Positions 3,306 to 38,743 of a stretch of DNA of 64,000 bases are shown one piece after another (within the stretch, counting starts at the first letter, position 1; each line of letters begins with the position of its first letter). The stretch comes from Alphaproteobacteria bacterium (GTDB lineage Bacteria; Pseudomonadota; Alphaproteobacteria; GCA-2731375): contig CBDDBZ010000024.1 in assembly GCA_965225945.1 (NCBI GenBank), positions 64,001 to 128,000 of the forward strand. Direction: 5' to 3'. Under the pieces are notes generated by a model. That model did not search any database. It was not told the DNA's origin and worked only from the letters and a program-made list of their open reading frames with translations. A program made the position numbers and the translations under genes.

Positions 3306-3877
3306 CGTCCTTTCCCCTTCGCTTTGGCCATGACCCGAAGCCATGTGGTCGGCACCGCCGCCATCTCCCGGCTGGCGCCCTCCGGTGGCCGACGAGGATA
3401 GCACGGAATGAACTCTCCGTGTGGCGCGTCGCGATGGAGCCGATCGATCGATTTGCGGTGATCGGAGGTGATCGAGTAACATTCGGGGTCTGTTCGTGCG
3501 AGTGAGTGCGTCGGGGGAGGGTCGATCACGCCGTGTTGGCGGCAAGTTCGGGTGCCCGAATGGCGACCCCTGGGTGGGAGGGCGGCCTTGTCGCGTCCGT
3601 TGGGCAAACCGATCGATCACCTCGACGTGGGTCACTCCATGGCCCGCGGCACCGTGTCATGGCGCCGTGACATTGCGCCCAGATGCCTCACCGCCTTACC
3701 AGCGATCGCGCCACCTCGCCCCACGTGGGTCGAACGAAGCTCGTTTACCCGAGCTTCAGCCGCTTCCAGCGCCGCTCGCGCCGAATATGACCAGGCGCCG
3801 CCCGCTCGGAAGCGATCCGAGACGACGACTGCCGGCCCGCCGGGCCGGAATTGAAGACGGGGGATCGGGGAAGACTG

Positions 3878-6990: not shown

Positions 6991-7747
6991 CCTTGCCTAT
7001 CCGGTTATCACCCACACCCACTATATGTAGTGTGCACCCATTTTACTGAGTAAAGCTCGGTGCAGGTCGAAGCGGAGATATCTCCGGCGATGCCGAGCAG
7101 GGACTCGGACGGCATTGTAGCGCCTTTTAGGCGACACTTTAGCGTGGTGGAAATCCTAATCATTGAGTCGGATTTGGCAAAACGCCACGTTGCATAAAGG
7201 ACCGTCACTTCATTGAAATTTATCTGAAATCGGAGGTGAACGACACCGATGGAATATTCCAGGAAATCAGAGCTTCATTGAATTGTAGGATTCGAGTGCC
7301 GGATTATTCACAAATAGCTCTGTGAACTGGTTTTCAAGTTCGCTCAATACGTCATATGAAGTAAACGGATTGAGGATCACGTTCTTGCGTGTCGCTTCGT
7401 CTTCGCTGCGACTCAAAACGCGCAGGAGACTAACAGGCGCGGACGGGTTCTTCGCAACGATTCGTGCCAGCGCGTCGCTTTCTTCGACTAGTGCCGTCAA
7501 TCGCTCAGACGATGTCGTTTCATCAGCAGCTTCCCGTCTGGCCGTGGGTTTCTTCGTTTTTCCCTTGGTCGCCACCGTTCCGTCCCCCGATGTTAAGTAC
7601 GTGACGTGAATTAAACTCCGGTTCGGTTTTCAGAACAATCAAGAATTAGCCGGATCGCCTCCTCAATGCGCCTGCGCCGGCCCTTGCCTGCAGTCCAAGG
7701 AGACACACTACATATAGTGGGTGTGGGTGATAACCGGATAGGCAAGG
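6991..7747. mobile_element. 757-bp non-autonomous TIR element with cargo ORF
   Basis: 44-bp perfect TIRs (6991-7034 / 7704-7747); TSD ATGCAA (or GATGCAAC if the TIR is 1 bp shorter); no transposase. Confidence 0.92.
7267..7575 (-). CDS. Small leucine-rich-repeat-variant (LRV)-like protein, cargo of the TIR element
   Basis: Repeats VAKNPSAPVSLLRVLS / VILNPFTSYDVLSEL / VNNPAL resemble LRV units. Confidence 0.55.
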   Translation of the reverse strand: MATKGKTKKPTARREAADETTSSERLTALVEESDALARIVAKNPSAPVSLLRVLSRSEDEATRKNVILNPFTSYDVLSELENQFTELFVNNPALESYNSMKL

Positions 7748-8864
7748 ATGCAACCTGCCTTGGAGGAATTTGGCCACCGAGGCCATCACCCGTTCGCCTG
7801 CCGCCTGGCTGCGAACATAGATGTTCACATCGTCGGCGTAACGGCAGAAGCGATGGCCCCGCGCCTCCAGCATCTGGTCCAGGTCGTCCAGTAGAAGATT
7901 GGCCAGCAGCGGCGACAGCGGGCCGCCTTGCGGCGTACCCTCATGGCGCCGGATGCAGACGCCGGCTTGCATCATCCCCGCTTGCAGGAAACGCCGGATG
8001 ATGCGCAGCAGGCGCTTGTCGCCAATGCGCCCAGCCAGTCGGGACATCAGAATGTCGTGCTTGACCCGGTCGAAGAACGTCTCCAAATCCAGGTCGACCA
8101 CGATCCCGTGGCCTTCGGCGACGTATTTGCCTGCTTGGGCCAGAGCATCGTGGGCGCTCCGTCCCGGACGGAAGCCAAAACTCGAACCCGAGAAAGCCGG
8201 ATCGAGAATTGGCTGAAGGACTTGCAGGATGGCTTGCTGAACCAGACGGTCCAGCACCGTCGGGATGCCCAATTGCCGCATCCCGCCCCCCGGCTTGGGA
8301 ATCGAGACCCCCTTCACCGGTTGTGGCCGATAACCGCCTCGGGCCCACTGCGCCACCAGCGCATCCTTGTGATCGGCGAGCCAGGGCCGTAGGTCTAGGA
8401 TGGTCATCCCATCCACCCCCGCCGACCCCTTATTCGCCTTCACCCGCCTGTAGGCTTGGCTCATGTCGGTGGCGATGAAAAACCGCGCTTAGATGGTGAT
8501 TTCAGCGACATCGGGCATCGTGGCGCTGTAGCTGCGTGGTTTGCAGGCGGGAGTTGGCTCGGCGCAGCGGTGGGTAAGTAGCCCGCCGCGGCGACCGCCA
8601 AGAGTCTGGCGGCGGCGGGCTGCTTATCCACCGCGGGCGGGCGTCTCGATTCCTGTTTTGGCTGGCTGGCGGCGGCGGTTCCGCGGACCTGACAAGGGGA
8701 GCCGCGGGAGTACACTCGGGCCGCTGAGAACGATGCGGCGCCGGCCCCGTTTGCTTGCTGGCAACGACCGGCACCGCACCCCCCGAGCCATGCAAGGCAC
8801 GACCCATATGCGCAGTATCGTGCGGGTTTGGGCGTGGGTCCACCCCGTTCTCATCGGCTGCGCG

Positions 8865-9305
8865 ATGAAGAACACCGCCCGCCTGTTCAACTGCGCCTCG
8901 TGCCATCAACAGGTGGTTCTCTGCCGGCACTGCGACCACGGCAACATCTACTGTTCACGGAGCTGCAGCGATCGGGTGCGCCGGCGATCGCAGCGCCATG
9001 CCGGGCAGCGCTACCAGAACAGCCGGCGGGGCCGTCACAAGCATGCTGAGCGCCAGCGGCGCTATCGCGAACGCCGGCGGCGCCGGACGCCGGTGAATCG
9101 GCGCCGCGGGCAGGAAGTGACGCATCACCCTTTGACCGCCGCGCGGCGGCGTCCTGTTGTGGCGCGGACGCCGGCAGGGCGTCCCGGAACACGGCCCTTC
9201 GGGCACGAGCGGCCCGCCAGGGTCTTCCGCTGCGATCGCTGCGGCCGGTTCTGCGGGCAGGCGGTCTATCCGGGGCTGCGCCCGACGGGAAAGGGGGTGA
9301 GATGA
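8865..9305 (+). CDS. Cys-rich, Arg-rich putative Zn-ribbon protein
   Basis: CASC, CRHC, CSRSC and CDRC clusters; ATGA overlap with istA. Confidence 0.7.
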
Positions 9306-10807
9306 CCATCGACAAGGAGACCCGCGCGGAGATCCTGCGCCTGTATCACGTCGAGAAGTGGACGGTCGGCACGATCACACGCCAGCTCGGCGTGCATCGC
9401 TACACCGTCGAGCGCCTCCTCACCGCGGCCGGCGAGCCCCGGGACGCGAGGTCGCCCAGGCCGTCGATGATCGATCCATACGTGCCGTTCATCGCCGAGA
9501 CGCTGGCATCCTGGCCGACGCTGCCCGCCAGCCGGCTCTACCAGATGGTGCGCGAACGCGGCTATCCGGGCGGCGGCGACCACTTCCGTCATCTGCTCAG
9601 CCACTTCAGGCCCAGGCCCGTGGCCGAGGCCTATCTGCGCCTCAAGACCCTTCCCGGCGAGCAGGCCCAGGTCGACTGGGGACACTTCGGCAAGGTGACG
9701 ATCGGCCGCGCGGAGCGCCGCCTGATGGGCTTCGTGATGGTTCTCAGCTACTCGCGGCGGATCTTCCTGCGCTTCTACCTCGACGCCGGGATGAGCAACT
9801 TCCTGCGCGGCCATGTCGAAGCCTTCGAGGCGTGGCAGGGCGTGCCCCGCGAGCTCTGGTACGACAACCTGAAGAGCGTCGTGCTGGAGCGCCGCGGCGC
9901 CGCCATCCGGTTCAATCCCCGGATCCTCGACCTCGCCGGCCACTACCACTTCCTGCCCAAGCCCGTCGCGGTCGCGCGCGGCAACGAGAAGGGGCGCGTG
10001 GAGCGGGCGATTCGCTATGTCCGGACCAGCTTCTTCGCCGCCCGCCGGTGGCGCGATATCGACGATCTCAACGCCCAGGCCCTGGCCTGGTGCCACGGCA
10101 TCGCCGCCGACCGCCCCTGGCCCGAAGACCGCTCGATCACCGTGCGCGAGGCCTTCGAGCGGGAACGCGGCTCTCTCATCGCGCTGCCCGGCGATCCCTT
10201 CCCCGACCACGACCGGGTCGAGGTCGCCATCGGCAAGACCCCCTACGCCCGCTTCGATCTCAACGATTACAGCGTGCCGCACACCCATGTGCGGCGCACC
10301 CTCGTCGTGGTCGCGACGCTCGACGAGGTGCGCATCCTCGACGGTGTGGACGTCATCGCCAGCCATCCGCGCAGCTTCGACAAGGCGGCCCGCATCGAGA
10401 ACCCCGAGCACATCGCCGAGCTGGTCAGGCGCAAGAGCCATGCCCGCCGCCTTCGCGGCCAGGACCGGCTGGTCCAGGCCGCGCCCAACAGCGAGCGCCT
10501 GCTCGCCGAGGCCGCCCAGCGCGGCGGCTATATAGGCGCCACCGTCGCCGCCCTGTTGCGCCTCCTCGACGCCTACGGCGCCGCCGAGCTCGAGGCGGCC
10601 ATCGACGAGGCCCTGAAGCGGGACGTTCCCCATCCCAACGCCGTGCGCCTGAGCCTGACCCGGCGGCGCGAGCTGCGGCACCAACCCCCGCCCATCCCCG
10701 TCGAACTGCCCGGCGATCCGAGAGTGCGCGACATCACTGTCCGCGATCACGACCTCGTCGGATACGACGGGCTGGCCGGCGAACCCGAGGAGGACAGCGA
10801 GCAATGA
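9302..10807 (+). CDS. istA: IS21 transposase
   Basis: [25 protein letters not shown] motifs. Confidence 0.95.
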
Positions 10808-11592
10808 ACGATACCCTCATGGGCCGTGCCCGGGCGCTCGGCCTGCACGGCCTCGCCGCCCACTGGGGCGAGGTCGCCGGGCATGACTGGCCCGCTGCGC
10901 TGGTCGCCTGGGAAGAGGAGGAACGGCGAAGCCGCAGCCTCAAGCGCCGCCTCGGCGACGCCCGCCTCGGACAGTTCAAGCCGCTCGCCGACTTCGACTG
11001 GGCATGGCCGCGCCGCTGCGACCGCATGGCCGTCGAGGATCTCATGAGCCTCGAGTTCCTCAACGAGGCCGCCAACGTCGTCCTGGTCGGCCCAAACGGC
11101 GTCGGCAAGTCGACCATCGCCGCCAATATCGCCCACCGCGCCGTCCTCGAGGGCCACACCGTGCGCTTCGCCACCGCGGCCAGCATGCTCGGCGAGCTCG
11201 CCGCCCTCGACAGCGACACCCTGCTTCAGCGCAGGCTGCGCTTCTACGCCCGCCAGCACCTGCTGGTGATCGACGAGGTCGGATACCTGTCCTACAGCAA
11301 CCGCCATGCCGATCTGCTGTTCAACATCGTCTCCAGCCGCAGCCAGCAGAACTCCACCATAATCACCACCAACCGGCCCTTCGCCGAGTGGGGTGAGGCC
11401 TTCCCCAACGCCGCCTGCCTCGTCGCCCTGGTCGACCGCCTCGTCCACAACGCCGAGATCATCGCCATCGACGCCGAGTCCTGGCGCCGCAAGGAGGCCG
11501 AGGAACGCCAGAAGCAGCGCAGCGCCGAGCGCCGCCGGCGGCGAGCCGGCAAGGCCGGCGCGCAGGACCGCGGGGAACCGCCGCCGGCGTAG
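10804..11592 (+). CDS. istB: IS21 helper AAA+ ATPase
   Basis: GPNGVGKS Walker [10 protein letters not shown] Walker B, LVDRLVH. Confidence 0.95.
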
Positions 11593-11594
11593 CC

Positions 11595-12491
11595 ATGGAT
11601 GGTCCCCGCCTCTGGGACCGGCGGGTGCGGGCCGAGGCCCTGCGAGGCTATCCCCTCGAAGACGTCGTCCGCCGCCTCGGCTACCGCCGCGATCCCACCG
11701 ATGCCGCGCGCTGGAGGCGTCCCGGATCCGTCGTCAGCATCAACGGCTTTATGTTCTACGAACATCTGCGCGGCGAGGGCGGGGGCGGAGCGATCGACCT
11801 GGTAATCCATGCCTGCCGGTGCACCGTGCCCGAGGCCCTCGGCTTCTTCTCGAAACTGCCGTGCCGTGACCGGTTCCCGGCCGATCGCCACCCGAAGCCG
11901 CCGTGCCCGGACCGCCACTGGCCCGCCATCCAGAGCTACCTCGTCGAGCAGCGCGGCCTCGCGGATGTGCTCGTCGCCCTGTGCCGCGACCTCGGCTTGC
12001 TCTACGCCGACCGCCACGGCAACGCCGTGTTCGTCCGCCGAAACGCGGCCGGCGAGGCTCTCGGCGCCGAGAGCGTCCCTGCCGCGGCGCCACGCCGCCT
12101 CGCGCCGACCGGCGCCGCCGCGCGCGGCGGCTTCTGGATGTCGTGGGAACCCGACTGGCCGAACTCCGTCATCCTCGCCAAGAACGCAATCGACGCCCTG
12201 TCGGTCCTCTCCCTCCACCTCGTCCCGGCCGGGCGCAAGGGATGCGCCGTGGTCTCAACCGGCGGCGCCACCGCAAGCCTCCCCGAATGGATCGAGGCCT
12301 GGAACCCCGGCCGGATCTTCTGCGCCTACGACGCCACCCGCCAGGGCGATGACGCCGCGGCACGGCTCATCCGAAACGACAGCAGGGTCGTCCGCCTGCG
12401 CCCTGCCCTCGACGGCCTGGACTGGAACGACATGCTCATGCGCGACCGCGCCGGCGAACCGCTCCAGATCGATGACCGGCCCCTCGACTGA
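11595..12491 (+). CDS. Primase-like DUF3991/Toprim-domain protein
   Basis: GGGAIDLV, YLVEQRGL, AIDALS, CAYD, DWND motifs. Confidence 0.75.
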   Translation: MDGPRLWDRRVRAEALRGYPLEDVVRRLGYRRDPTDAARWRRPGSVVSINGFMFYEHLRGEGGGGAIDLVIHACRCTVPEALGFFSKLPCRDRFPADRHPKPPCPDRHWPAIQSYLVEQRGLADVLVALCRDLGLLYADRHGNAVFVRRNAAGEALGAESVPAAAPRRLAPTGAAARGGFWMSWEPDWPNSVILAKNAIDALSVLSLHLVPAGRKGCAVVSTGGATASLPEWIEAWNPGRIFCAYDATRQGDDAAARLIRNDSRVVRLRPALDGLDWNDMLMRDRAGEPLQIDDRPLD

Positions 12492-13223
12492 ATAGCCACA
12501 GCGCGAAACAAAATCAGCCAAGCCCAAAAGCATCCCGTCAGCCAACCGCCACCGACCGCTCAAAAAGAGCACCATATAAGCGCACCCTGGAACCACCGCT
12601 AACAGGCTCAGGTTGGCTGAACTCACCACCCGTTCCATCAGGTCTTGCGTCAAGGCTCGTTGCTGTTCCAACGCCGTGACCGCTTGTGGCTCCTCGCAGG
12701 GTCCAGTTCCGGTTCCGCCGTCACCGGAGGCCTCGGGGCGCAGCGTCTTCATCAGGGCCTCGTCAAAAAGGTCCAGTTGATAAACACCGCCTTGCCGCCG
12801 CTCCACGCTCATCGAGTTGATCCAGACTGCTCCTTGCTACTCGGATTCGGCCCTTCGGCGCCTCTCGGCCCCTACTATGGCCTCGGCTGACTTCTCCACC
12901 GCCATCGCTCCCCGTCGCCGGTTCGCTACTCGGATCGCCCGAGAGCGCTGGAGATCTCCCTGGGTAAGACGCTGATCTTTCCTCCGGTCGCGGCCGGATT
13001 TACCAATGCGACGTCCGAACGACTATCGGGCCTCGCCATCCATTGCTGGCTTACCCCATCGCACCGGCCTGATATCCGGTTTCTGTTCGTCCGCTCCAGA
13101 TTTTGCCTCCCGCTTCCTCCCCACCCCGCCTCGCGGCGACGCAGTTGCCTTCAGCTATCGGTTCCGGTCGTTACGGCCCGTAGAGAACTTCCATCTCCTA
13201 GATCAGCGCCATGCCAGGCACAC

Positions 13224-16197: not shown

Positions 16198-16283
16198 GAG
16201 CAGCTTGAAGACCATGGCGAGCGCCGTCTTGCGGCCGAGGCAGCCCTTGGTCTTTTCGGTCCTGAGTCGCAGCGTGGGAAAAG
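16198..16283 (-). pseudogene. IS256-family transposase C-terminal fragment
   Basis: TLRLRTEKTKGCLGRKTALAMVFKLL. Confidence 0.65.
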
Positions 16284-16332
16284 GCGCAGCGTGGGAAAAG
16301 ATCGCGGTAGGGACATGAGTTACCCCACGCCC

Positions 16333-16986
16333 TTCGCCGTAGGGACGCGGGTTACCCCGCGCCCCCGGCACAAAACCCGGCGTGCGGAACTACCGCACCG
16401 GGCTTCCACCTCGGATGTTTGACGGCAAAGCAACTTGCCGTACACGCTCCAGCCCCTGGGTCACGCTTACCCGGCTCGGTGTCCGGTACGTATCGGGTTG
16501 AACCATGTTCTCCTCGGCGCCTCCCCTTGGCTCCACCAACTCCGCCGTCGATTGTTCGACTTTGTTCGCCGGCTTCACGGCTACTATGGGAGGCTCAGAC
16601 TTCTGGCGGCCGTTCATCGCCGGCGACGCCCCCTTGGGGCTTCCCAGCACGACCCGAGCCCACCAAGCGGTCTCGGGTAGCCACCAGATCTCCCGGTTCC
16701 CTGACAAAGTGCGTATGCGCATGCCTGGGGTCTTGGACCACGCCGGGCCGGCAAACCGCTCGCGCTAACGCGGTGCGCCATGTTGTCTTCCCCATAACGG
16801 GAGAGGGTCGACACCCGGGACGACAGCTGTTTCACGGCTCGATATCCCAGCCTACGCACACCCCTACCGACGCTTCGCCGACACCCTCGCGGATGCCAAC
16901 GCACGGCTCGGAGGCCGATGTGGTTCGCTACTCCTTCATCGCAGAGGACTTGCACCTCCAACACCTTGCCGGTTTTTCCGGCGCAC
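16333..16986 (-). mobile_element. 654-nt ORF-less (internally deleted) group II intron
   Basis: GTGCG start, DI-DIII-like sequence, RT N-terminal codons fused to C-terminal codons, intact DV/DVI. Confidence 0.85.
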
Positions 16987-16992
16987 CCCGCA

Positions 16993-18911
16993 GTTACGGT
17001 AGGAATGCGCATTGCTGCGCACCCCCCGCGCAGATCCGGACGTGGTCGTTGAACCATCCGGCTCCTACCTCGGGTGCTTGACGGCAAACCGCTGGTCCGG
17101 CCATGGGTGGCGGATGGAGGCGCGTGGCCACAGGATTTCGGTCATGCGCTCCAGTCGCTTCCAACTAAATCGGGCTCGCTGGGACCGGCGGCGTAGCGCC
17201 CGCATCCACCGGCGTTGCAGCCTGCGGAGGAACGCACGGATGAACCGGCCTGACCCTGGGACGGCAAAGTAGTTGAGCCAGCCATTGCAGACTCGCCCCA
17301 GCCACCTACCAACTTCCCAGATGTCGTGGTGCCAGCGCTTGCGGAGCACCTCGTCGATGCGCGCCAGGGTCCTGTTGACCCGTTTGGCGACCGGTTTGCG
17401 ACCAAGCCGAAAGCGTCCTCTCAGGGTCGTCGTGCAATAGTGCGTGAGGCCCAGAAAGTCGAAAGTCTCCGGCTTGCCCACCCCGCGCTGGCGCCGGTTC
17501 AAATCCGCGAACCGGCCAAACTCCACGAGGCGGGTCTTGTCCTGGTGGAGGCTGAGACCGAACCGGGCCAGCCTCTCCCGAACGTCGCGGAGGTACCGCT
17601 CCGCATCCCGCTTGTGTTGGAACCCGACAACGATATCGTCAGCGTAACGGACGATGATCGCTTCGCCATCCGGGACGTTCGGGCGCCATTTCTTGTGGAA
17701 CCACAAGTCGAGCACGTAATGCAGGAACACGTTCGCCAAGACGGGGGAGACTATTGCCCCCTGCGGCGTGCCCATACCCGTATCTGCCCATGACCCACTC
17801 TCTATGACGCCGGCGTTCAGCCATTTCCGGATCAGACGGATGACCCGCCTGTCTCCGATGCGGTGCTCTAGGAACGTGATCAACCAATCCCGCGGGATCG
17901 TGTCGAAGTACGCCCGGAGGTCTGCATCGACTATCCAGCTGACCTTGCGCCGTTCTATCCCGAAGGCCAGGGCATCGAGCGCATCGTGCGCCCCCCGCCC
18001 CGGTCGGAACCCGTAGCTGAAGCCAAGAAACACCACCTCGTAGATCGGTGTCAGGATCACATCCACAACCGCCTTCTGGACGACCTTGTCCTCCAGCGCC
18101 GCGATCCCGAGCGGTCGTGTCCCCCCGTCCGGCTTGGGTATCTCTACCCGCCGAACCGGCGGCGCCCGGTACGCTCCCCCTCTGTGCAGGCGCCGGTGCA
18201 GGTCGAGCAGGCGCTCATCCAGACCCTCGCCGTACATGTCCCACGTAACGCCGTCGACACCGGCTGCTGCGTCCTTCTTCAATGCGAAGTAGGCCGCACC
18301 GAGCGCGTCCGGCGTAATGTGGTGGAAGAGCGCAGTGAGACGTTCCTTCGGGTTTCTCTCTGCAGCTTTCCGTATCCGGGCCGCCGCCTGTGGCACGCTT
18401 ACCCGACACTGTGTTCGGCGCGTGCTTTGGCAATCCGGATTCCCCTTGGTTGAGGCCCTTTCCTCCGGCGACTCCGCAGAAGCTCGCGCTCCCTTGTTCG
18501 CCGCCCTCACAGGTCGTACGGCCTCATCCGACTTCTTCAAACCGTTCATCATAGGCTTCGGTTTTCTCCATTCCCTACGCGGCCCCTTTACGACAACCGG
18601 GGCAGTTTGAAGACCTCCCAGGGTCCCAACAGAAGGCGTGCGAACGTGCATGGGTTCTCTGACACCGCGGGGCTCGCCGACATCTCACCAAAACGACGCC
18701 TGCGATATTGCCTTCGACCGATCTGAAAGCCTCGGCACCCCGGACCATCGCTTTTACGGTGCTCAATAGCCCTGCCCATCCATGCCGCTACCGACGCTTC
18801 GCCTGCCCCCTCACGGGAGCCAACGCACGGCTCGCGGAGAAACGTGGTTCGGTTACTCCTTCGTTCCGGGGGACTTGCACCCCCTACCTTCTGCCAGTTC
18901 GCCTGGCGCAC
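16993..18911 (-). mobile_element. Intact group II intron (1919 nt)
   Basis: GTGCG at 18911; DV/DVI ending CCTACCGTAAC at 16993. Confidence 0.92.
17065..18552 (-). CDS. ltrA: Group II intron RT/maturase (no En domain)
   Basis: GTPQGAIVSPVL, RYADD, FDFLG; probable start MMNGLKKSD. Confidence 0.92.
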   Translation of the reverse strand: MMNGLKKSDEAVRPVRAANKGARASAESPEERASTKGNPDCQSTRRTQCRVSVPQAAARIRKAAERNPKERLTALFHHITPDALGAAYFALKKDAAAGVDGVTWDMYGEGLDERLLDLHRRLHRGGAYRAPPVRRVEIPKPDGGTRPLGIAALEDKVVQKAVVDVILTPIYEVVFLGFSYGFRPGRGAHDALDALAFGIERRKVSWIVDADLRAYFDTIPRDWLITFLEHRIGDRRVIRLIRKWLNAGVIESGSWADTGMGTPQGAIVSPVLANVFLHYVLDLWFHKKWRPNVPDGEAIIVRYADDIVVGFQHKRDAERYLRDVRERLARFGLSLHQDKTRLVEFGRFADLNRRQRGVGKPETFDFLGLTHYCTTTLRGRFRLGRKPVAKRVNRTLARIDEVLRKRWHHDIWEVGRWLGRVCNGWLNYFAVPGSGRFIRAFLRRLQRRWMRALRRRSQRARFSWKRLERMTEILWPRASIRHPWPDQRFAVKHPR

Positions 18912-19214
18912 CAGATCCCGGCGTGCACTGCTAATGCACCGGGCTCCTGCCTCGGGTATTTGACGTAGAAGCGTTTCGACGGCCAGGGATGGAGGATCGT
19001 CACTGGCGGAAGCCAGCGCTCGACCAGCTTGGCAAAGACCTTCCAGGTCGTGCGGTCGTTCTGGCTGCGGCGCCGGAGCGCTTTCAGCCATAGAACGAAA
19101 CCGCTTTCAGCGGTAGTTCGTGGTGCCGGGCGGTGAGGTCGGTGGCGTAACGGATGGGTCGATCCTGTGTTGAGGTTTGGAGTTCCGAAGCTCACGCAAC
19201 ACGGGAGCAGACCC

Positions 19215-20120
19215 ATGACCGATAGTGACAAGACCATCAGCCCGCTGCGCCAGCGCATGATCGACGACATGGTGCTTCGCGGCTTCAGTGCCAACACGCA
19301 GCGCGGCTACATCAGTGCGGTGGCCGGCTTTTCCGACTTTCTCGCACGCTCTCCGGATCGGGCGGAGGCGGAGGATCTCAGGCGCTATCAAGTGCATATG
19401 CGCAAAGCAGGCGCATCGGCGACGACGATGAACGCGGCGGTCTCGGCATTGCGGTTCTTCTTCGGCGTCACGCTCGGCCGAGGCGACGCCGAGATCGGCA
19501 TGACGACGGTGGCAATGCCGCGCAAGCTGCCGGTGATCCTGAGCGTCGAGGAAATGGCGCGGCTTCTCGATGCCGCCCCCGGTCCCAAATACAAGGCGGC
19601 CTTTTCGCTGGCCTATGGCGCCGGCCTGCGCGCTTCGGAGGTGGTCCATCTCAAGGTCCCGGACATCGACAGCAACCGCAAGACGCTTCGCATCGAGCAA
19701 GGTAAGGGCCGCCGAGATCGCTACGCCATGCTCTCGGATCGCGCCGTCGAGCAGCTCAGGGTCTGGTGGTTGCTTGGCCGCGCCCGCGGCGTGATGCTGC
19801 CCGGCGGTTGGCTGTTTCCAGGCCAGAACCCGGTCAACCCGTTGACCACCCGCCAGCTCCGTCGCGCCCTCGATGGCGCCAAGGCGGGGGCGGGGATCGA
19901 GAAGCGGATCTCGCTTCACACGCTGCGCCACTGCTTCGCCACCCATCTCCTCGAACAGGGCGTCGACATCCGCGTGATCCAGGTTCTACTGGGGCACAAG
20001 AAGCTGGAGACCACGGCTCACTACACCCAGGTCGCCAGCACCACCTTGCGGCGCGCCAAGAGCCCACTGGACCTGCTCGAGCCGCCGACGCCCAAGACCA
20101 AGCGCAAGCCGCCGAAGTGA
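19215..20120 (+). CDS. Tyrosine recombinase (XerC/D-like)
   Basis: GLRASE, HTLRHCFATH, LLGH, HYT catalytic residues. Confidence 0.93.
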   Translation: MTDSDKTISPLRQRMIDDMVLRGFSANTQRGYISAVAGFSDFLARSPDRAEAEDLRRYQVHMRKAGASATTMNAAVSALRFFFGVTLGRGDAEIGMTTVAMPRKLPVILSVEEMARLLDAAPGPKYKAAFSLAYGAGLRASEVVHLKVPDIDSNRKTLRIEQGKGRRDRYAMLSDRAVEQLRVWWLLGRARGVMLPGGWLFPGQNPVNPLTTRQLRRALDGAKAGAGIEKRISLHTLRHCFATHLLEQGVDIRVIQVLLGHKKLETTAHYTQVASTTLRRAKSPLDLLEPPTPKTKRKPPK

Positions 20121-20133
20121 GCCGGCGGCCTCG

Positions 20134-21348
20134 GTGCCGCGTCCCGCGCTCGAGGTCCAGGACATCTTCCGCGACCACGGGCCCGGCTTCCGTCGGGCCC
20201 GGGCCGGTCGTCTGAGCCTCGGCCAACTGAAGGTCATGTCGGCGATCGAGTGTTGCCGCACCGCCGCGCTCGGCGGTCATGTCGCGGCCTGCGAGGACTG
20301 CGGGCAGAACCACATCGCCTACAATTCCTGTCGCAACCGCCATTGTCCCAAATGCCAAGGCCAGGTCGCGCGCGAATGGCTGGCGGCGCGAGAGGCCGAA
20401 CTGCTCTCCGTCCCCTACTACCATCTCGTCTTCACCCTGCCAGCGGCGATCGCCGACATCGCCTATCAGAACAAGTCGGTGATCTACGATATCCTGTTCA
20501 AGGCGAGCGCCGAGACCATGCTCACCATCGCCGCCGATCCCAAGCATCTCGGCGCCAAGATCGGCATCACCGCCGTGCTCCACACCTGGGGCTCGGCCAT
20601 GACCCACCATCCCCACATCCACATGATCGTGCCGGGTGGCGGAATCTCACCTGACGGTAGCAGTTGGATCTCTTGCCGGCCCGGCTTCTTCCTGCCCGTC
20701 CGCGTGCTCTCGCGCCTCTTCCGCCGCCTCTTCATCGAGAAGCTCCTCGCCGCCCACGAGGCAGGGCGCCTGAAGTTCTTCACCGACCACACCAGCCTCG
20801 CCGAGCCGGCGGCCTTCCGTGTCTTCCTCGCACCGATGCGCAAACAAGAATGGGTCGTCTACGCCAAGCCGCCCTTCGGCGGACCAGAGGCCGTGCTCGC
20901 CTATCTCTCCCGCTACACCCACCGTGTCGCCATCTCGAACAGCCGCCTGGTCAGCTGCGACAGCCAAGGCGTCATCTTCAAGTACAAGGACTACCGGCGC
21001 AAAGGACGCGAGCGCTACAAGACCTTGCCCCTGGCCGTGCCCGAGTTCATCCGCCGCTTCCTCCTCCATGTCCTGCCCTCGGGCTTTCACCGCATCCGCC
21101 ATTACGGCCTCTTCGCCAACGGCGGTCGCACCCGCAACATCTCCCTTGCCCGCGAACTGCTTGCCATGCCGGCACCGGAGAGTGAGGCCGACGATGCCGC
21201 GAGTGACGATGATACCGAACCGCCGTCCCTCTCAGAGCCCTGCCCGCAGTGCGGCGGCCGTATGATCGTCATCGAGCGCTTCGAGGCCGGCGCCCAACCA
21301 CGCGCCCCGCCCCGTGCACGGCCCCTGGCCAGGGCCACGGCAGCATGA
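20134..21348 (+). CDS. IS91-family transposase
   Basis: SCRNRHCPKC Zn domain, HTWG...HPHIH HUH motif, YLSRY. Confidence 0.93.
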   Translation: MPRPALEVQDIFRDHGPGFRRARAGRLSLGQLKVMSAIECCRTAALGGHVAACEDCGQNHIAYNSCRNRHCPKCQGQVAREWLAAREAELLSVPYYHLVFTLPAAIADIAYQNKSVIYDILFKASAETMLTIAADPKHLGAKIGITAVLHTWGSAMTHHPHIHMIVPGGGISPDGSSWISCRPGFFLPVRVLSRLFRRLFIEKLLAAHEAGRLKFFTDHTSLAEPAAFRVFLAPMRKQEWVVYAKPPFGGPEAVLAYLSRYTHRVAISNSRLVSCDSQGVIFKYKDYRRKGRERYKTLPLAVPEFIRRFLLHVLPSGFHRIRHYGLFANGGRTRNISLARELLAMPAPESEADDAASDDDTEPPSLSEPCPQCGGRMIVIERFEAGAQPRAPPRARPLARATAA

Positions 21349-22303
21349 CCGACACCGCTTCGAATAACGCTATTGCCGCCGCTCACCCGCGGCCACGATC
21401 CCGCTCGCCGCAACACCATCGAGCGCGCAGGGAACCACCTGCGAGACCCGCCGGCATCGACCCGAAGTCGCCATCAAACCACCCTGCCGGTGTCGTCGCC
21501 AATCAGATCCGAGCCATCCAGCAGCGCCGGCCACCCGAGAAAGCTGGCCCGCCGCTCGCAAATCCCCATAGACCGAGCGTGCCGCACCGCCGAGCCTAGT
21601 CCTGCCCGCGGTTTCCTCCCTTAAGCGTTGTCCGACACCTGCCGATCCAGTCCGCCGGATGCAACCCCTGCGCCTCGGCAGGTGTCCGACAACGCTTAAC
21701 AGAACCGGGCGACCTGATAGCGGAAGGCATTCAGGGCCGGAGCGTTGGTCGGCACGGCGAAGTACGCGAAGTAGCCTCGCACCACCGATGCCAGCCAGCG
21801 GCCCTGCTCGGCGATTGGCTGATGCCGTCGCCGGAGGAGTTCGCGCTTGATCTCCCCGAGCTTCGCCCCCATGCGCTTACGCCGCGTCTTGCGTCGCAGT
21901 TGGAACCGTCCCTTCCGGTCCTTCGCGCAGATGTGCGTGAAGCCCAGGAAGTCGAACGTCTCCGGCTTGCCGTCGCCTCGGCCCTTCCGACTTTTCGCGG
22001 CGTGCCGCCCAAACTCGATGAGCCGGGTTTTCTCCGCGAACAGCGCGAGGCCGAAAGCCCGCAAGCGTTCCTCCAATGCCGCCCGGAAGGCAAGCGCGTC
22101 TTCCCGGTACTCGAAGCCCACGACGAAGTCGTCCGCGTAGCGGACGATGACCATGTCGCAGTGGGTATGGCGCCGACGCCATTGGTGCGCCCACAAGTCC
22201 AGGACATAGTGCAGGTAGACGTTGGAGAGCAGCGGTGAGAGCACCGCGCCCTGTGGCGTCCCCTGCTCCGGGACCGTGAGTTTGCCATCTTGCATAATGC
22301 CGG

Positions 22304-23762
22304 CTTCTCTATCGCGTCCTCGGTCAAGCCCTTTCTGGTTACGTCATGCCATATTCCTTCTTCACGTCGTTCCGCACTGGCGGATGTTGCCGCACGGGGC
22401 TCTTGCTTCTCTTCGAGGTTGGCGCGTGGCCACCTCATGATGGGATCAGAGGATGAGGCGGTTCAATCTTTCGCGCGTCCTTGCCGCCGGTCAGCGGCAG
22501 GGTCTACCGACATTACGAACTCACCCCACCCGTCGTCCCCGTGAGGACATCTCTCTGCCTAAGCAGAACTCGTTGATCTCCTTGTCAGTACAGTCGAAGG
22601 TTCAATCCGCCTTGACGGCGTCAGCAGGGCCGTTGCTCCAGCGGAACTCGGTGCCGTCGACCCACATGCGGTGCAGAACTACGGCCAGGCGCCTCGCGAC
22701 GGCGACGATGGCACGGCGCATGCCACGTCGCTGGGCCACTCGCATGCCCCACGCCTTCAGCCAGGACCATTTCCGGCCGTGGGTGAGGAGGGACTGCGCG
22801 GCCTCGTACAGCATCGTGCGGAGCATGCTGTCGCCGCACTTGGACACGCAACCATCATAGTCGATCTCGCCGGACTGGAAGCGCTTCGGCGTCAGGCCGA
22901 CATGCGCGCCGACCGCCCTGGAGTGAACGAAGCGCTGCGGCTGATCGATGGTAGCCCGGTAGGTCAGCGCGACGACCACGCCGACGCCGGGTGCCGTCAT
23001 GAGCCGTCGGCAGACCGGGTCATGGCGGACCGTGTCGAGCACCATTTTGTGGAGGACCGCGAATTGCTGGCGCATCACTCGCCGGACGGTGAGCAGCGGT
23101 TCCACAATAGCGGCCAGCTTCGGAAAGTCTTCGACCAGCTCGCGGATCCGCGCCTCGTACCCGCGGGTGCTGACCGTGCCCACCTTGAGACCGAAGTTGC
23201 GCAGCGTCCCGCGTAGATCGTTCTCGACGTCGAGCAGTTTTCTCTGGAGCAGCTTGCGGCTGGTCAGCAGCATCCGCTGCTCCTGGGCAACCAGGGTCTT
23301 CACATGCACCGGCTTGAACAGCCCGACCCGCATCATCTGGGCGATGCCGCGCGCATCGTTGCGGTCGCTCTTGTTGATCTGCTGCCCCTTGAGCAGTGCT
23401 TTCATGTGCCGAGTCTCGACGCAGACAACCGGCAGCCCGGCGGCGGCAAGACCGTTGACCAGCCATTGCGAGAGCGGACCGGCTTCGATCCCGATCCGGC
23501 CATAGGCCACGCCGATCGAGGTCAGCAGCGTGACGATGTAGTCCGGCTCGGTCGGCACTTTCCGCTCCAACACCACCTCGCCAACCTCGTCGACGACGCA
23601 TACCGCCGTCTCCTTCACCGAAACATCCAGACCTACGAAATGTGCCATCGTCATCGCTCCTTCCTCGATGTTCGAGGTCAGGGCGACCCCGATTTATCGA
23701 TCATGCGTGAAGGGGCTGCCATCATCCTGATATCATCAGCCACAGCCGCCGCGATATACCAT
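22304..23762 (-). mobile_element. IS110-family (IS1111-type) element, copy 1
   Basis: 1459 bp, AAG core at both junctions, subterminal CGCGATA/TATCGCG inverted repeat. Confidence 0.9.
22602..23654 (-). CDS. IS110 DEDD recombinase
   Basis: VGLDVS, GIEAG, KSDRNDA, QSGE. Confidence 0.95.
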   Translation of the reverse strand: MTMAHFVGLDVSVKETAVCVVDEVGEVVLERKVPTEPDYIVTLLTSIGVAYGRIGIEAGPLSQWLVNGLAAAGLPVVCVETRHMKALLKGQQINKSDRNDARGIAQMMRVGLFKPVHVKTLVAQEQRMLLTSRKLLQRKLLDVENDLRGTLRNFGLKVGTVSTRGYEARIRELVEDFPKLAAIVEPLLTVRRVMRQQFAVLHKMVLDTVRHDPVCRRLMTAPGVGVVVALTYRATIDQPQRFVHSRAVGAHVGLTPKRFQSGEIDYDGCVSKCGDSMLRTMLYEAAQSLLTHGRKWSWLKAWGMRVAQRRGMRRAIVAVARRLAVVLHRMWVDGTEFRWSNGPADAVKAD

Positions 23763-24572
23763 CTTTCAGCCACTTGGCCGTAAGGCGGAGGAGACGCCGA
23801 TCTCCGATCCGGTGCTCTAGGAACCCTCTCAGCCAGTTTTGGTCGGATGAGTCGAAGAAGCCGGATATATCGGCGTCCAGGATCCAGTTCACCTCGCGCT
23901 CGGTGATCGCCACCGCGAGCGCGTCCAGCGCGTCGTGCTGGTTGCGCCCCGGACGGAAGCCGTAGCTGAACCCGAGGAAATCTTCCTCGTAAATCTGGTT
24001 CAGCACCGTGCTCACGGCCATATGGGCGATCTTGTCCTCCAGGGCCGCGATCCCCAATGCCCGCGCCGAGCCGTCCGACTTCGCGATGAATTGTCGCCGG
24101 CTCGGCAGAGCCCGGTAGCCGCCCCGATGGAGCCGCCCATGCAGGTTCGGGAGACGCTGCTCCAGATCCTGGCCGTACTCTTGCCACGTCATGTCGTCCA
24201 CTCCGGGCGCCGCGTCGCGCTTCAGCGCCAGGTAGGAGGCCCGAAGGAGTTCGACATCGACATGGTGCAGCAGCGCGGTGAACTTTAGTTTCCCATCTCG
24301 TCTCGCCGCTTCTCGTACGCGCTCCAGCCCCTGTGACAGGCTTTCCCGACTCCGCGTCCGGCGCCTGCGTGTCAATCGGCGTTGAACATTGACCCCCTAT
24401 CGGCGTGCAATGTTGACCCCTTTGGGGATGCACGGCGGAGGTCGTACAGGTAGTCCATAGGAGGGGCCCGCGCGCGGGCCGACGCGCCCACCACGCGGCT
24501 GGCGGCGGACCGCGCGTGGGAGGTTCCTGTGGGCCCACCTGGGCGACCGGGCGGCAGGTGGATCGGTTGCCT

Positions 24573-25301
24573 TTAGGACCGATTCTTGAAGCGCCAGGAG
24601 TCGTTTCCGGTCTCGATGATCTCGCAGTGGTGCGTCAGACGATCGAGGAGCGCGGTGGTCATCTTGGCGTCGCCGAAGACGGACGGCCATTCGCCGAAGG
24701 TCAGGTTGGTGGTGACGATGATCGAGGTGCGCTCGTAGAGCCGGCTGACGAGGTGGAACAGCAGCTGGCCTCCGGTTTGGGCGAAGGGCAGGTAGCCGAG
24801 CTCGTCGAGGATGACGAGGTCGCGCCGGGCCAGCTGATCGGCGAGCCGGCCCTGGCGGCCGGCGCGGGCTTCGGCCTCGAGCCGGTTGACCAGGTCGACG
24901 ACGTTGAAGAAGCGGCCCCGGGCGCCATCGCGGATGCAGGCCCGCGCGATGGCGACGGCGAGATGGCTCTTGCCGGTGCCGGTGCCGCCGATCAGCACGG
25001 CGTTGCGCTGGTTGGCCAGGAAGCCGCCGACCGCCAACTCGCGGACCAGCGGCTCGTTGACCGGGGTGTCGGTGAAGTCGAAGTCGGCCAGCTCCTTGGC
25101 CAGCGGCAGCTTGGCGCCACTCATCTGGTACTTGATGGATCGCGCCTGCTTGTCGGCGATCTCGGCCTTCAACAGCTCGCCGATGATTCGCTGCATCGGA
25201 TGCTGGCGCTTGAGGCCGTCGGCGAGCACCTCGTCGAACGCGTCGCGCATGCCGGCGAGCTTGAGTGCGGCCATCATCTCCAGGACCTCATGGCGCTCCA
25301 T
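24573..25301 (-). CDS. istB: IS21 helper ATPase
   Basis: [22 protein letters not shown]. Confidence 0.95.
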
Positions 25302-26799
25302 GGCCGACCCCCCTCAAGCGGTCGTAGCGGGTGCAATCGGCCACCGGCTCAAAGCGAAGACGCAGGTTCGCGGGCGTCGGGATCGGCGCCGTCTCGGACG
25401 GCTGGCGCCGACGATTGAGGATGTTGAGCACGACGTCGGCGCTGCACACGCCGCCAGCGAGCGCCTCGGCACAGGCGGCCTCCACCGCCGCCAGCCCATC
25501 CGCCAGCACGGCGGTGAGGATCTCGACCATCTGCCTGTCGCCGTCGTCGTGGCCGGCGAGCCGGACGCGCACGCGACCCAGGGCGCCGGGCAGCGCCCAG
25601 TCCTTGAACGGCGCGCCGTTACGAAGCGCACCGGGCTTCCTCGCCAGCACGGGCACGTAGTGCCACGGGTCATAGACGGTCTGGTCGCGGCCGAAGCGCC
25701 GGGCATGCTCGGCGACGATCTCGCCGTCCTGGCGGATGACGATGCGATCGGCGTAGGCATGGACCTCGACCGGACGGCCGACGGCGCGCGCCGCCACGCT
25801 GTACTTGTTGCTGTCGAAGCGCACCAGGCAGGTCTTCGACACCGACGCCGGGACCGCGTGGAAGCCGTCGAACGGCCCGCGATAGCCGACCAGGGACGGA
25901 CGCTCGTCCTCGAACACCTGCCAGACAGTCCTGTCCTTGAACACCGGGTGGGGATGACGCCGGGCGTAGGCGACGCACTGGTCCAAGAGCCAGGCGTTGA
26001 GTTCGTCGTAGGTCTTGAAGCGCAGCCGCGGGGTGAAGAACCGACCGCGGATGATCCCGACCTGGTTCTCGACCTGCCCCTTCTCCCATCCCGCTCCCGG
26101 CGTGCATGCTGTCGGTTCGACCAGGTAGTGGCCACACATCTGCACGAAGCGCCGGTTGAACGCGCGCTCCTTGCCGATGAGGACGGTCTGCACCGCCGTC
26201 TTCATGTTGTCGTAGATGCCTCGCCGGCAGGCACCCTGGAACAGCCGGAATGCCCGGTCGTGGGCGTCGAACACCATCTCCTGGCTCTCGCGCGGATAAG
26301 CGCGGACGAAGAACATTCGGCTGTGGCACAGCCGGACGTGCGCGACCTTGACCTTGGTCGTCACCCCCGCCAGCACCACGTACTCGTGGCTCCAGTCGAA
26401 CTGATAGGCCTCGCCCGGCGAGAACACCAACGGCACATAGGTCTGCGCCGTCGATGCCGAACGGCGCCACCGCCACGCCTTGGCGTAGCGCCGCACCGCG
26501 TCGTAGCCGCCGCCATAGCCCAGACCCTCGAGGGCTTCGGAGATCCGTAGCAGCGTCAGCCGCTCCCGCTTCGACTTGGTCTCGTTGGCCTCCAGCATCC
26601 GCTCCAGCTCGGCCGTCCACGGCCCCAGCTTCGGCATCGGCTGGACCCGCCGGTCGTAGGTGAACGCCGTCGCCTGCGAACGGATCACCTTGCGCACCGT
26701 GTTGCCCGAGACCTTCACGTCCCGCACGATCTCCTTGATCGGCTTCCCCTTGACGAAATACTCCCGCCGGATCCGCGCTATCGTCTCCACGACCAACAT
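25288..26799 (-). CDS. istA: IS21 transposase
   Basis: [21 protein letters not shown]. Confidence 0.95.
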
Positions 26800-27420
26800 C
26801 CCCCACCACCTCGTCCGCCCAAAAACGAGGTGACTTGGACTAGCCAGGCTCAGGGGGTCAAATTTGGACGCCGATCACCCCTCAACAGGGGTCAACTTTG
26901 CACGCCGTTCCACACCTGCGTTGCTGACCCACGTTCCCCTTGGCTCCGCCCCTTCCCTCCACCGGCTCCGCCGCCTCGCACAAGGCTTTGTTCGTCGGCT
27001 TCCCAGGTACTATGGGCGAATCTGACTTCTCTCGAGCGTGCGTCATCGGCTACGGCCCTTCGGGCCTTCCCGATGCGGACCGCGCAAACGCAAGGACGGC
27101 CACTCGAGAGATCTCCCGGTTTCCGCTCAGGCGATTTCCATGCGTGCGTGGGCTCTACGACCGCGCAAGGCCCTCCGAGCGCTCGCCAATGCGCGCTCGT
27201 CGGTGTGGCCTTCCCCATAGACCCACAGGGTCGGCGCCTCGAATGCGCATTTTTTGCGGCTCAATACCCAGCCCACATGTACCCCTGTCAACGCTTCGCC
27301 TCGCCCTCGCGGACCGCAGGCGCATGACTCGGGGCCGGTGTGGATGGCTAACCCTTCACCGTACGGCTCTCTCATCCGCTACTCCTCGCCGGCGATACCG
27401 GCGCACGGGTCATTCTACTT

Positions 27421-28450
27421 CCTGATTACGCACTTCACTCAGCCGGGTTGATGTGGTACAAATCATGAACAAATGGCGGTTTTTCTGGAGGTTCACAATG
27501 CCACGCAACAACGTTCAGTTCCAGAAGGGGCTCAGCGAAGCGCGTTTTCGTGAGTTGTACGGTAGCGAGGAGCAGTGTCGCGAGGCCCTGTTCCGCTGGC
27601 GCTGGCCGGAGGGCTTCTCCTGCCCCCGATGCGGCGCCACGCGCCATTGCGAGATCGCCGGCCGCAAGCTCTACCAATGCGCCGCCTGCCGTCATCAAGT
27701 CTCGCTGACCGCCGGCACGCTCTTCCACGCGACCAAGCTGGCGCTGACCCTGTGGTTTTCGGCGATCTATCACATGACCCAATCGAAGAAGGGGATCTCC
27801 TCCATCGAACTCGGCCGCCGGCTCGGCGTCACCCAGACCACGGCCTGGAAGATCAAGCAGAAACTGATGCAGTCCATGCTCGAGCGCGATGCCAAATTGC
27901 CGCTCACCGGGCGGGTGGAGATGGACGATGCCTACCTCGGCGGCCGGCGTTCCGGGGCCAAGCGCGGCCGAGGCGCGCCGGGCAAGACGCCGTTCGTCGC
28001 CGCCGTCCAGACCACGGCGGAGGGCCAGCCCGTGCGCATCAAGCTCCGCCGCGTCAAGGGCTTCCGCAAGAGCGAGATCGCCAAGATGGCCAAGCGCGAC
28101 CTGAGCCCGCTGGCGACGGTTGTCAGCGATGGGCTCGGCTGCTTCACCGCGGTCACCGCGCAAGGCTGTGCGCACCATCCGATACCCACTGGCTCCGGAC
28201 CCGGGGCCGTCGCCGTGCCCGCCTTCAAATGGGTCAACACCACCCTCGGCAACCTCAAAAACACCCTGCGCGGTACCTACCATGCGATCCGACCCAAGCA
28301 TGTGCCGCGCTAACTGGCGGCGTTCCAGTACCGATACAACCGCCGCTACCGGCTCGCCGACATGATCGAAGCCCTCGGCCGCGATGCCCTGCGCACGCCG
28401 CCCATGCCATATCGGCTCCTGAAATTGGCTGAGGTTAGTGCGTAATCAGG
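27421..28450 (+). mobile_element. IS1595-family element
   Basis: TIR CCTGATTACGCACT...; 8-bp TSD TTCTACTT. Confidence 0.93.
27498..28445 (+). pseudogene. IS1595 transposase with premature stop at 28311-28313
   Basis: VEMDDAY, VSDG; homologous frame continues (LAAFQYRYNRR) after TAA. Confidence 0.85.
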
Positions 28451-38028: not shown

Positions 38029-38743
38029 GGTCCTGGAGATGATGGCCGCACTCAAGCTCGCCGGCATGCGCGACGCGTTCGACGAGGTGCTCGCCGACGG
38101 CCTCAAGCGCCAGCATCCGATGCAGCGAATCATCGGCGAGCTGTTGAAGGCCGAGATCGCCGACAAGCAGGCGCGATCCATCAAGTACCAGATGAGTGGC
38201 GCCAAGCTGCCGCTGGCCAAGGAGCTGGCCGACTTCGACTTCACCGACACCCCGGTCAACGAGCCGCTGGTCCGCGAGTTGGCGGTCGGCGGCTTCCTGG
38301 CCAACCAGCGCAACGCCGTGCTGATCGGCGGCACCGGCACCGGCAAGAGCCATCTCGCCGTCGCCATCGCGCGGGCCTGCATCCGCGATGGCGCCCGGGG
38401 CCGCTTCTTCAACGTCGTCGACCTGGTCAACCGGCTCGAGGCCGAAGCCCGCGCCGGCCGCCAGGGCCGGCTCGCCGATCAGCTGGCCCGGCGCGACCTC
38501 GTCATCCTCGACGAGCTCGGCTACCTGCCCTTCGCCCAAACCGGAGGCCAGCTGCTGTTCCACCTCGTCAGCCGGCTCTACGAGCGCACCTCGATCATCG
38601 TCACCACCAACCTGACCTTCGGCGAATGGCCGTCCGTCTTCGGCGACGCCAAGATGACCACCGCGCTCCTCGATCGTCTGACGCACCACTGCGAGATCAT
38701 CGAGACCGGAAACGACTCCTGGCGCTTCAAGAATCGGTCCTAA
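38015..38743 (+). CDS. istB: IS21 helper ATPase
   Basis: Protein identical to 24573-25301. Confidence 0.95.

Follow-up and report, generated by a model that had tools for sequence, protein, structure and literature searches.

In the 64,000-nucleotide window analysed here (positions 64,001 to 128,000 of contig CBDDBZ010000024.1, assembly GCA_965225945.1, from an Alphaproteobacteria bacterium), two group II introns are inserted into the 3' end of a third on the minus strand. In this study, we found that the complete inner intron, intron 1 (16993..18911), lies between domain V (DV) and domain VI (DVI) of the outer, or host, intron, and that relatives of intron 1 occupy the same junction in several other genomes. 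From these results it is quite probable that intron 1 belongs to an endonuclease-less lineage whose home site is the DV/DVI boundary of introns of its own type, and that the shorter inner intron, intron 2 (16333..16986), comes from a different sub-lineage.

A first-pass annotation made from the sequence alone had proposed a nested layout at 16301..18946. Reading of the sequence, matches to the Rfam model RF02005 and the restored DV/DVI fold all confirm it at these coordinates. The order on the minus strand is host DV with its linker, intron 1, the hexamer TGCGGG, intron 2 and the rest of host DVI. Intron 1 has 1919 nucleotides (nt) and an intact protein gene; it starts with GTGCGCC at 18911 and finishes with CCGTAAC at 16993. 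Intron 2, which lacks an open reading frame (ORF), has 654 nt, starting with GTGCGCC at 16986 and finishing with GGCGAA at 16333. Canonical GTGCGCC 5' ends were found three times, at 27406, 18911 and 16986, and DV/DVI-type 3' ends three times, with last bases at 16993, 16333 and 16301. RF02005, which models group II domain I and has a cut-off of 49 bits, also matched at full length three times, at 18877-18653 (163.7 bits), 16952-16728 (168.9 bits) and 27372-27151 (168.3 bits). The general DV/DVI model RF00029 remained below its cut-off of 40 bits, with scores of 35.4 and 32.5, and a profile built from the 3' ends of the RF02005-type family itself scored 61-64 bits. The 32.5-bit match of RF00029 covers 16301-16407, that is, 107 nt for a 77-nt model, and runs from DV of intron 2 to the host 3' end; automatic annotation would therefore mis-call the 3' boundary. 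This is relevant to annotation in general, since pipelines drop nested introns (PMC4028801; PMC8919778).

The host 3' end was rebuilt by removing both inner introns. Host DV (33 nt) and the 2-nt J5/6 linker are at 18912..18946 and end in GATCTG, the last base of which is 18912. TGCGGG at 16987..16992 forms the first 6 nt of the 5' strand of host DVI and is intron-binding site 1 (IBS1) for intron 2, and the remainder of DVI, including the bulged A, extends over 16301..16332 to the 3' splice site. After removal of the inner introns, the sequence folds into DV (nt 1-33), the linker (nt 34-35) and DVI (nt 36-71), with a two-nucleotide bulge in the DV hairpin and a bulged A in the DVI hairpin. The folding energy was -39.5 kcal/mol, compared with -27.1 +/- 3.2 kcal/mol for shuffled sequences. 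The rebuilt 217-nt 3' end was colinear over both junctions with the uninterrupted 3' ends of many relatives, for example positions 1-217 at 70.5% in loci L062 and L071 and positions 134-217 at 83% in L037. The site of intron 1 is the exact border of linker and DVI, and that of intron 2 is directly after nucleotide 6 of the DVI stem. The insertions had been placed at the DV/DVI junction or in DV; the linker/DVI boundary and the DVI stem hold as the sites, and DV itself does not. All three elements have a GUGYG 5' end, a bulged DV, a DVI with a bulged A, and pairing of exon-binding sites 1 and 3 (EBS1, EBS3) with IBS1 and IBS3 in the flanking exons. These results indicate that the elements are group II introns and that the nest is a twintron, in which inner introns lie within an outer intron that is restored when they are taken out.

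The exon-binding sites were located by covariation. A genome-collection scan with an alignment of 34 proteins gave 79 loci, covering the best 80 of at least 454 confirmed relatives. With profiles of both intron ends in this family, 89 intron 5' ends were then located and aligned; 69 with an unambiguous 5' boundary were kept and 20 dropped, leaving 63 after duplicates were collapsed. For each exon position, we looked for an intron column that was complementary more often than expected. Exon positions -1 to -6 covaried with positions 187-192 of intron 1 (EBS1; 53-61 of 63 paired, 26-36 expected), exon positions -9 to -12 with positions 160-163 (EBS2; 34-48 of 63 paired, 22-26 expected), and the first nucleotide of the 3' exon with position 252 (EBS3; 59 of 66 paired, 29.7 expected). 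In intron 1, EBS1 is CAGAUC at 18720..18725 in the terminal loop of an Rfam hairpin, EBS2 is AGCG at 18749..18752 in an internal loop, and EBS3 is the A at 18660. EBS1 forms six of six Watson-Crick pairs with GATCTG, EBS2 forms three of four pairs, with exon positions -10 to -12 (CGC, at and after the DV bulge), and EBS3 forms an A:T pair with the T at +1, the first nucleotide of host DVI. In intron 2, EBS1 is CCCGUU at 16801-16796, with four Watson-Crick pairs and one G:U pair to GCGGG and exon position -6 unpaired, and EBS3 is the C at 16735, facing G at +1. Alignment with the covarying positions placed the host EBS1, GGGUCU, at 27219..27224, where five of six pairs form with the 5' exon ending TGACCC; the host EBS3 is the G at 27158, which faces C at +1. 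All three hexamers that had been proposed as EBS1 (CAGATC 18725-18720, CCCGTT 16801-16796 and GGGTC 27224-27220) are backed by this covariation, and the check by domain I structure agrees, since the Rfam consensus structure places them in a hairpin terminal loop.

Intron 1 encodes an intron-encoded protein (IEP) of 496 amino acids (aa) from an MMNG start (17065..18555, minus strand), or 528 aa from an upstream ATG at 18651. Its length matches that of relatives at 495 aa. Pfam identified RVT_1 (1.7e-36) and GIIM (2e-4), the YADD motif is present, and no endonuclease domain was found by Pfam and motif checks. An intact reverse transcriptase (RT)/maturase, which autonomous mobility requires, is present in intron 1 only; intron 2 has a remnant and the host has fragments. 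The DV, linker and DVI of intron 1 itself are at 16993..17066. A copy of GATCTG had been reported in this DV, and it is there, at 17036-17031, followed by a C that mismatches the intron's own EBS3.

Two known classes were considered for intron 1 and rejected. Membership in class D, the class of RmInt1, was rejected because a regular expression for the C-terminal motif LX3AX3PXLF[V/A]HW found no match in the IEP. Class C/IIC introns insert after a DNA stem-loop and have a short IBS1 and no EBS2. Such hairpin-guided targeting was ruled out by the 6-nt EBS1 and covarying EBS2 of intron 1, and by four of five ectopic insertion sites, described below, that lack a strong hairpin upstream (-5.1 to -7.7 kcal/mol versus -15.6 to -18.1 kcal/mol at DV sites). 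Judging from its sequence, intron 1 appears to be a live-looking member of an endonuclease-less, IIB-like RF02005-type lineage that is mainly alphaproteobacterial, and we infer that it is active at present. Introns of this type may correspond to bacterial class E, a name that we offer as a guess. IIC introns are described in a review as choosing their targets differently (PMC4424553).

We investigated how often relatives of intron 1 use the same junction. Empty sites were rebuilt for 70 paired copies, and in seven of these a DV-DVI profile matched across the junction (E<1e-3): the two window introns, L006, L011, L024, L026 and L033. In the rows of intron 1 type (the window copy and these five loci), the junction falls at model position 38-39. 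Locus L022, with three tandem copies, has the same DV 5' flank (E 3.6e-3), and in L034 and L059 the intron is then followed by DVI-like hairpins with a bulged A. Relatives with at least 78% protein identity therefore occupy this junction in five of seven other genomes, namely OZ253470, CAZTOF01, OZ220465, CAZNYE01 and VXSG01 (loci L006, L011, L022/24/26/33, L034 and L059). The genomes with other sites are CBDHDN01 (L001-L005) and OZ219747 (L007-L010). Among copies from loci at or below 73% protein identity, none of 50 paired copies matched the DV-DVI profile across the junction. In the IEP tree, which comprised 62 distinct rows of 76, the window copy formed a clade with L004/L005, L006, L010 and L022/24/26/33 (support 99/97). 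L004/L005 are the rows kept for L001-L005 after removal of duplicates, L034 and L059 were left out at fewer than 400 aa, and the row L024_1329 is a host protein. EBS2 tracks the host DV strand within these relatives, being AGCG with CGCT in L006 and GACG with CGTC in L022, L024 and L026.

The hosts of these relatives are also of RF02005 type but divergent (105-122 bits). Some are ORF-less, one encodes a 42%-identical protein with an in-frame stop, and at least three different DVI sequences occur among them. No locus examined had a twintron whose host was intact, the host protein of L024 being interrupted by an in-frame stop. In OZ220465, the inner copies are 98.3-99.95% alike, and the host sequence upstream is 96-97% alike within a host type and about 50-81% alike between architectures. 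The inner copies being more alike than the host sequences points to separate homing events and not to copying of one composite. It could still be argued that inner and outer introns move together as one twintron and that the repeated junctions go back to one old insertion. Several OZ220465 loci have the same host flank sequence, and PMC2882425 raises the possibility that composite twintrons are mobile. However, this single genome has at least two host architectures, ORF-less and ORF-bearing, whose upstream sequences are about 50% alike around inner copies that are at least 98.3% alike, the hosts differ between genomes with three DVI types, and the window host is immobile, with its IEP in four pieces. 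We regard joint movement as very improbable. An assembly artefact, in which mis-joined repeats in metagenome assemblies or recombined DV sequences mimic nesting, appears more improbable still. It is true that the records are all metagenome-assembled and that introns are repeats, but the junctions are exact intron ends (GTGCG at the start, AAC at the finish) beside sequence that pairs with EBS1, EBS2 and EBS3, which recombination in DV would not create, and the same junction is present in several chromosome-level records (OZ253470, OZ220465) as well as in the window.

The target itself is widespread. GATCTG is present at this place in 53 of 60 distinct uninterrupted 3' ends, and the next base is T in 33 of them, C in 16 and A in 4; many of these ends run on with TGCGGG then G, which is the site of intron 2. 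A C after the intron's own GATCTG, which mismatches EBS3, was found in the window copy, in L001-L006 and in the partial L034, and also in L011, outside the supported clade. This C may, speculatively, act as self-immunity.

Several observations weigh against a home site at the DV/DVI boundary. Five copies, L001-L005, are 99.3-99.5% identical to intron 1 and are located at ordinary non-intron sites, which share only GATCTG (GAGCTG in L003) and one to four EBS2 pairs. These five near-identical copies show that the target specificity of intron 1 is loose and that the lineage is not restricted to introns. The copies L007-L010, at 86% identity, have a changed EBS1 and a different site, and L011 is outside the supported clade, in an unresolved part of the tree. 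L034 and L059 were found without a 5' flank, the window copy makes three EBS2 pairs only, and the window host is among the three seeds of the DV-DVI profile, so that the two window rows are circular. Intron 2 is a single instance with no significant EBS2 pairing and has its relatives elsewhere. Coverage was limited to the best 80 of the 454 confirmed relatives, and all of the related records are metagenome-assembled genomes. The expectation that homologues would be flanked consistently by DV is thus borne out for intron 1 in five of seven genomes and fails for L001-L005, which are in non-intron DNA.

These observations could mean that the insertions in introns are chance ectopic hits, with intron 1 entering any GATCTG, a common sequence in introns, and intron 2 representing a one-off event. 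Five of six near-identical copies at non-intron GATCTG/GAGCTG sites with a weak IBS2 would fit such an account, as would the frequency of GATCTG in the 53 of 60 distinct 3' ends and the lack of both an EBS2 match and similarly placed relatives for intron 2. We nevertheless consider it unlikely. The same junction recurs in five of seven other genomes among relatives down to 78% identity, and EBS2 changes to fit the host DV strand. In addition, L001-L005 have a derived base in common at eight sites, although L003 matches the window copy at three of these, and at all eight the window copy agrees with the outgroup L006. Since the window copy retains this L006-like ancestral state, insertion at the DV/DVI site appears to have come first, with the ectopic copies arising in a later burst. 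These results suggest that homing to the DV/DVI boundary accounts best for intron 1.

For intron 2, the evidence is different. It is a non-autonomous, ORF-less intron of a sub-lineage different from that of intron 1, with a remnant of an IEP N-terminus at 16626-16429 (minus strand; tblastn). Its EBS2 showed no meaningful pairing with the 5' exon, whether intron 1 was present or absent: the duplex energies with and without intron 1 were -0.6 and -3.1 kcal/mol, and the corresponding fractions for random 12-mers were 0.97 and 0.60. The insertion order, which we tried to derive from EBS2, could not be inferred from duplex energies that were no better than those of random 12-mers. The pairings impose no splicing order between introns 1 and 2, and no dependence of the two introns on each other was detectable. 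Intron 2 had no second copy in the window or at any locus examined, its nearest relatives there being about 71% identical. A search of a plasmid collection with the whole region gave 12 records with only partial matches at 72-88% and no close copy. The relatives of intron 2 (L062, L065, L071, L076 and L080-L082) are at unrelated targets; the plasmid loci among them, L080-L082, have their introns in non-intron targets. Because these relatives use unrelated targets, specialisation of intron 2 for DVI is unproven, and the earlier proposal that this intron, too, is specialised for intron cores is not supported.

The pairings suggest how intron 1 would reach its site. EBS1 CAGAUC pairs with the last four nucleotides of host DV and the two linker nucleotides, EBS2 AGCG (GACG or GGCG in relatives) with the 3' strand of DV at and after the two-nucleotide bulge, and EBS3 A with the first nucleotide of DVI. 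The DV/linker/DVI stretch hardly varies within the class, so that the site is available in many different host introns. Intron 2 would have reverse-spliced six nucleotides further, into the base of the DVI stem, which is equally conserved, guided by EBS1 and EBS3 only. In the proposed mechanism, excised intron RNA together with the protein reverse-splices into transiently single-stranded DNA at a replication fork, and the inserted intron would then be copied with the nascent strand as primer. A replication-fork mechanism has been reported for other endonuclease-less introns (PMC4424553; PMC4615759). Insertion places the host branch point about 1.9 kb (2.6 kb in the window) from the catalytic hairpin, so that a living host could presumably splice only after excision of the inner intron.

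A broader reading is that the intron 1 clade is parasitic on other group II introns, homing to a stretch that ribozymes cannot change freely, and that intron 2 represents a second, independent lineage targeting TGCGGG then G. We put this forward tentatively and consider it rather doubtful. If it were true, GATCTG then T, as present in 33 of the 60 distinct 3' ends, would be a perpetual target pool across lineages, and a host would splice only after its parasite, its catalytic hairpin being split from the branch point. Apart from this broader reading, a lineage re-using the DV/DVI junction across genomes would be new in that part of its guide pairs with the strand that bears the catalytic bulge. 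Such a lineage would also make clear that even the ribozyme's most constrained region is usable as a homing site, one that the host cannot easily mutate away, and it would offer a natural system for the study of conflict between selfish elements, of splicing that depends on an inner intron, and of the growth of nests of mobile DNA.

Twintrons and homing of introns into introns are already known, and the DV/DVI junction as a re-used site is a variant of these. In Euglena psbF, the inner intron is in domain V. Full-text literature searches turned up no bacterial intron lineage described as homing to the DV/DVI junction, although their coverage did not extend to Dai and Zimmerly 2003 or Simon et al. 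2008, which may mention one. The comparisons that follow refer to the available portions of the papers cited. There, the bacterial and archaeal cases of introns in introns use domain IV, with the protein gene, or domain I. The nested introns of Methanosarcina acetivorans (Dai and Zimmerly 2003) are described as homing into the ORFs of related introns, in domain IV (review PMC4424553). The window resembles that system in repeated, site-specific homing of introns into introns, in having ORF-less and ORF-bearing members, and in that no host gene is at stake and the nest is a perpetual homing site (PMC4424553). In contrast to those ORF targets, the window sites are the DV/DVI junction and the DVI stem, in the ribozyme core, and the genome is bacterial.

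Similarly, the TeI3-in-TeI4 twintrons of Thermosynechococcus elongatus have ORF-less inner introns at one conserved site in related introns with good EBS/IBS pairings, and the inner copies are more alike than the outer ones, which was read as independent homing (PMC2882425). The T. elongatus introns belong to class IIB1/CL with endonuclease and use a site between two IEP start codons in domain IV (PMC2882425), whereas the window site separates DV from DVI and splits the host ribozyme core. In Trichodesmium (PMC4649490) and the chloroplast twintrons of Euglena (PMC4424553), too, an inner intron breaks up a domain of the outer ribozyme, and the sequential splicing required there would also be needed by a living host of the present kind. 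However, the Trichodesmium inner intron is in domain I and not at DV/DVI (PMC4649490), the Euglena introns are degenerate organellar introns in which twintrons are common (PMC4424553), and neither is described in these portions as a lineage re-using the DV/DVI junction across genomes.

Likeness was also seen to RmInt1 and RmInt2 of Sinorhizobium, which belong to class D (PMC4615759). Shared features are an endonuclease-less IEP, recognition by EBS1, EBS2 and EBS3, homing into other mobile elements with partial EBS2 pairing tolerated, and, with RmInt2, a 2-nt spacer between IBS1 and IBS2 (PMC4615759). Head-to-tail double insertions are a further common feature, explained for RmInt1/RmInt2 by pairing of EBS3 with the intron's first G (PMC4615759). 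In contrast, the reported targets of RmInt1/RmInt2 are insertion sequences (IS) and not introns, and the intron 1 protein lacks the class D C-terminal motif and is of the 495-aa size of its relatives versus 419 aa (PMC4615759).

Tandem introns of this kind were observed at several loci. In L022, introns stand head to tail at 2646-4563, 4564-5293 and from 5294 onward, and further cases are at 7028/7029 in L037 and at 2648 in L038. In each, a complete 3' end abuts a new 5' end, and EBS1 does not match the preceding intron. All three L022 copies have C as EBS3, and this C pairs with the G that opens the following intron. The arrangement is consistent with a new insertion at the 5' junction of a site already occupied, as has been proposed for RmInt2 (PMC4615759). 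Unequal recombination may instead have produced such tandems. The tandem copies in L022 also have an EBS1 variant, CCGAUC, that would match GATCGG perfectly, and one host copy in L026 (4434) has GATCGG instead of GATCTG before the inner intron; variant and site were not found together in the loci seen. L037, from a Rhodothermales genome, is a dense nest in which six 5' ends and several 3' ends belong to ORF-less RF02005 introns of about 600-670 nt. It also contains one full intron that has entered DV/DVI-like sequence of a different element, as well as a domain I of RF02003 type at 1862-2002.

The host intron in the window spans 16301..27406 on the minus strand. The first-pass annotation had claimed a third intron; it is present, but as an 11.1-kb relic with IS21, IS110 and IS91 elements in its protein gene, recognised by RF02005, colinear IEP fragments and the restored DV/DVI. 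The host IEP is in four pieces, separated by three insertion sequences. Fragments found by tblastn correspond to residues 88-282 of the intron 1 protein (23755..24333, 58% identity), residues 279-474 (21723..22307, 50% identity) and the C-terminal residues 482-528 (18950..19090, 51% identity), all on the minus strand. The IS21-type insertion at 24573..26799 (minus strand) consists of istA (26799-25288) and istB (25301-24573), with the Pfam domains rve, Mu-transpos_C_2 and IstB_IS21. The IS110-family transposase gene is at 22602..23654 (minus strand; DEDD_Tnp_IS110, Transposase_20) and the IS91-family transposase gene at 20134..21348 (plus strand; Y2_Tnp, Zn_Tnp_IS91). The host intron in the window is probably old and inactive, and since its protein gene is split by three insertion sequences, the ordered splicing that had been called for to rebuild the host ribozyme is moot here.

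Insertion sequences are also abundant in the surroundings. Elements of the IS21 type (four), IS110 (two), IS91 (one), IS1595 (two) and IS66 (one) lie within 7.6-42 kb of the window (7600-42500), and the IS21 and IS110 elements inside the host have counterparts at 36517-38743 and 32887-33939 whose Pfam scores are the same. The host 3' exon (16267-16300) opens with a 17-nt unit in tandem, identical at 16 of 17 positions, and on the opposite strand an ORF for an IS1595-family transposase (27453-28313) begins 47 nt from the host 5' splice site. From this tandem repeat and the adjoining ORF, the outer intron may be located in or beside a mobile element. At 7646-13140 on the minus strand, the window also holds a group II intron that differs from these in structural type: RF02001 and RF01998 match at 13140-12850, and a fragment of an RT gene is located at 8464-7646. 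This intron appears to be split by an IS21 element at 9302-11592 (plus strand), which lies between its domain I and the RT fragment.

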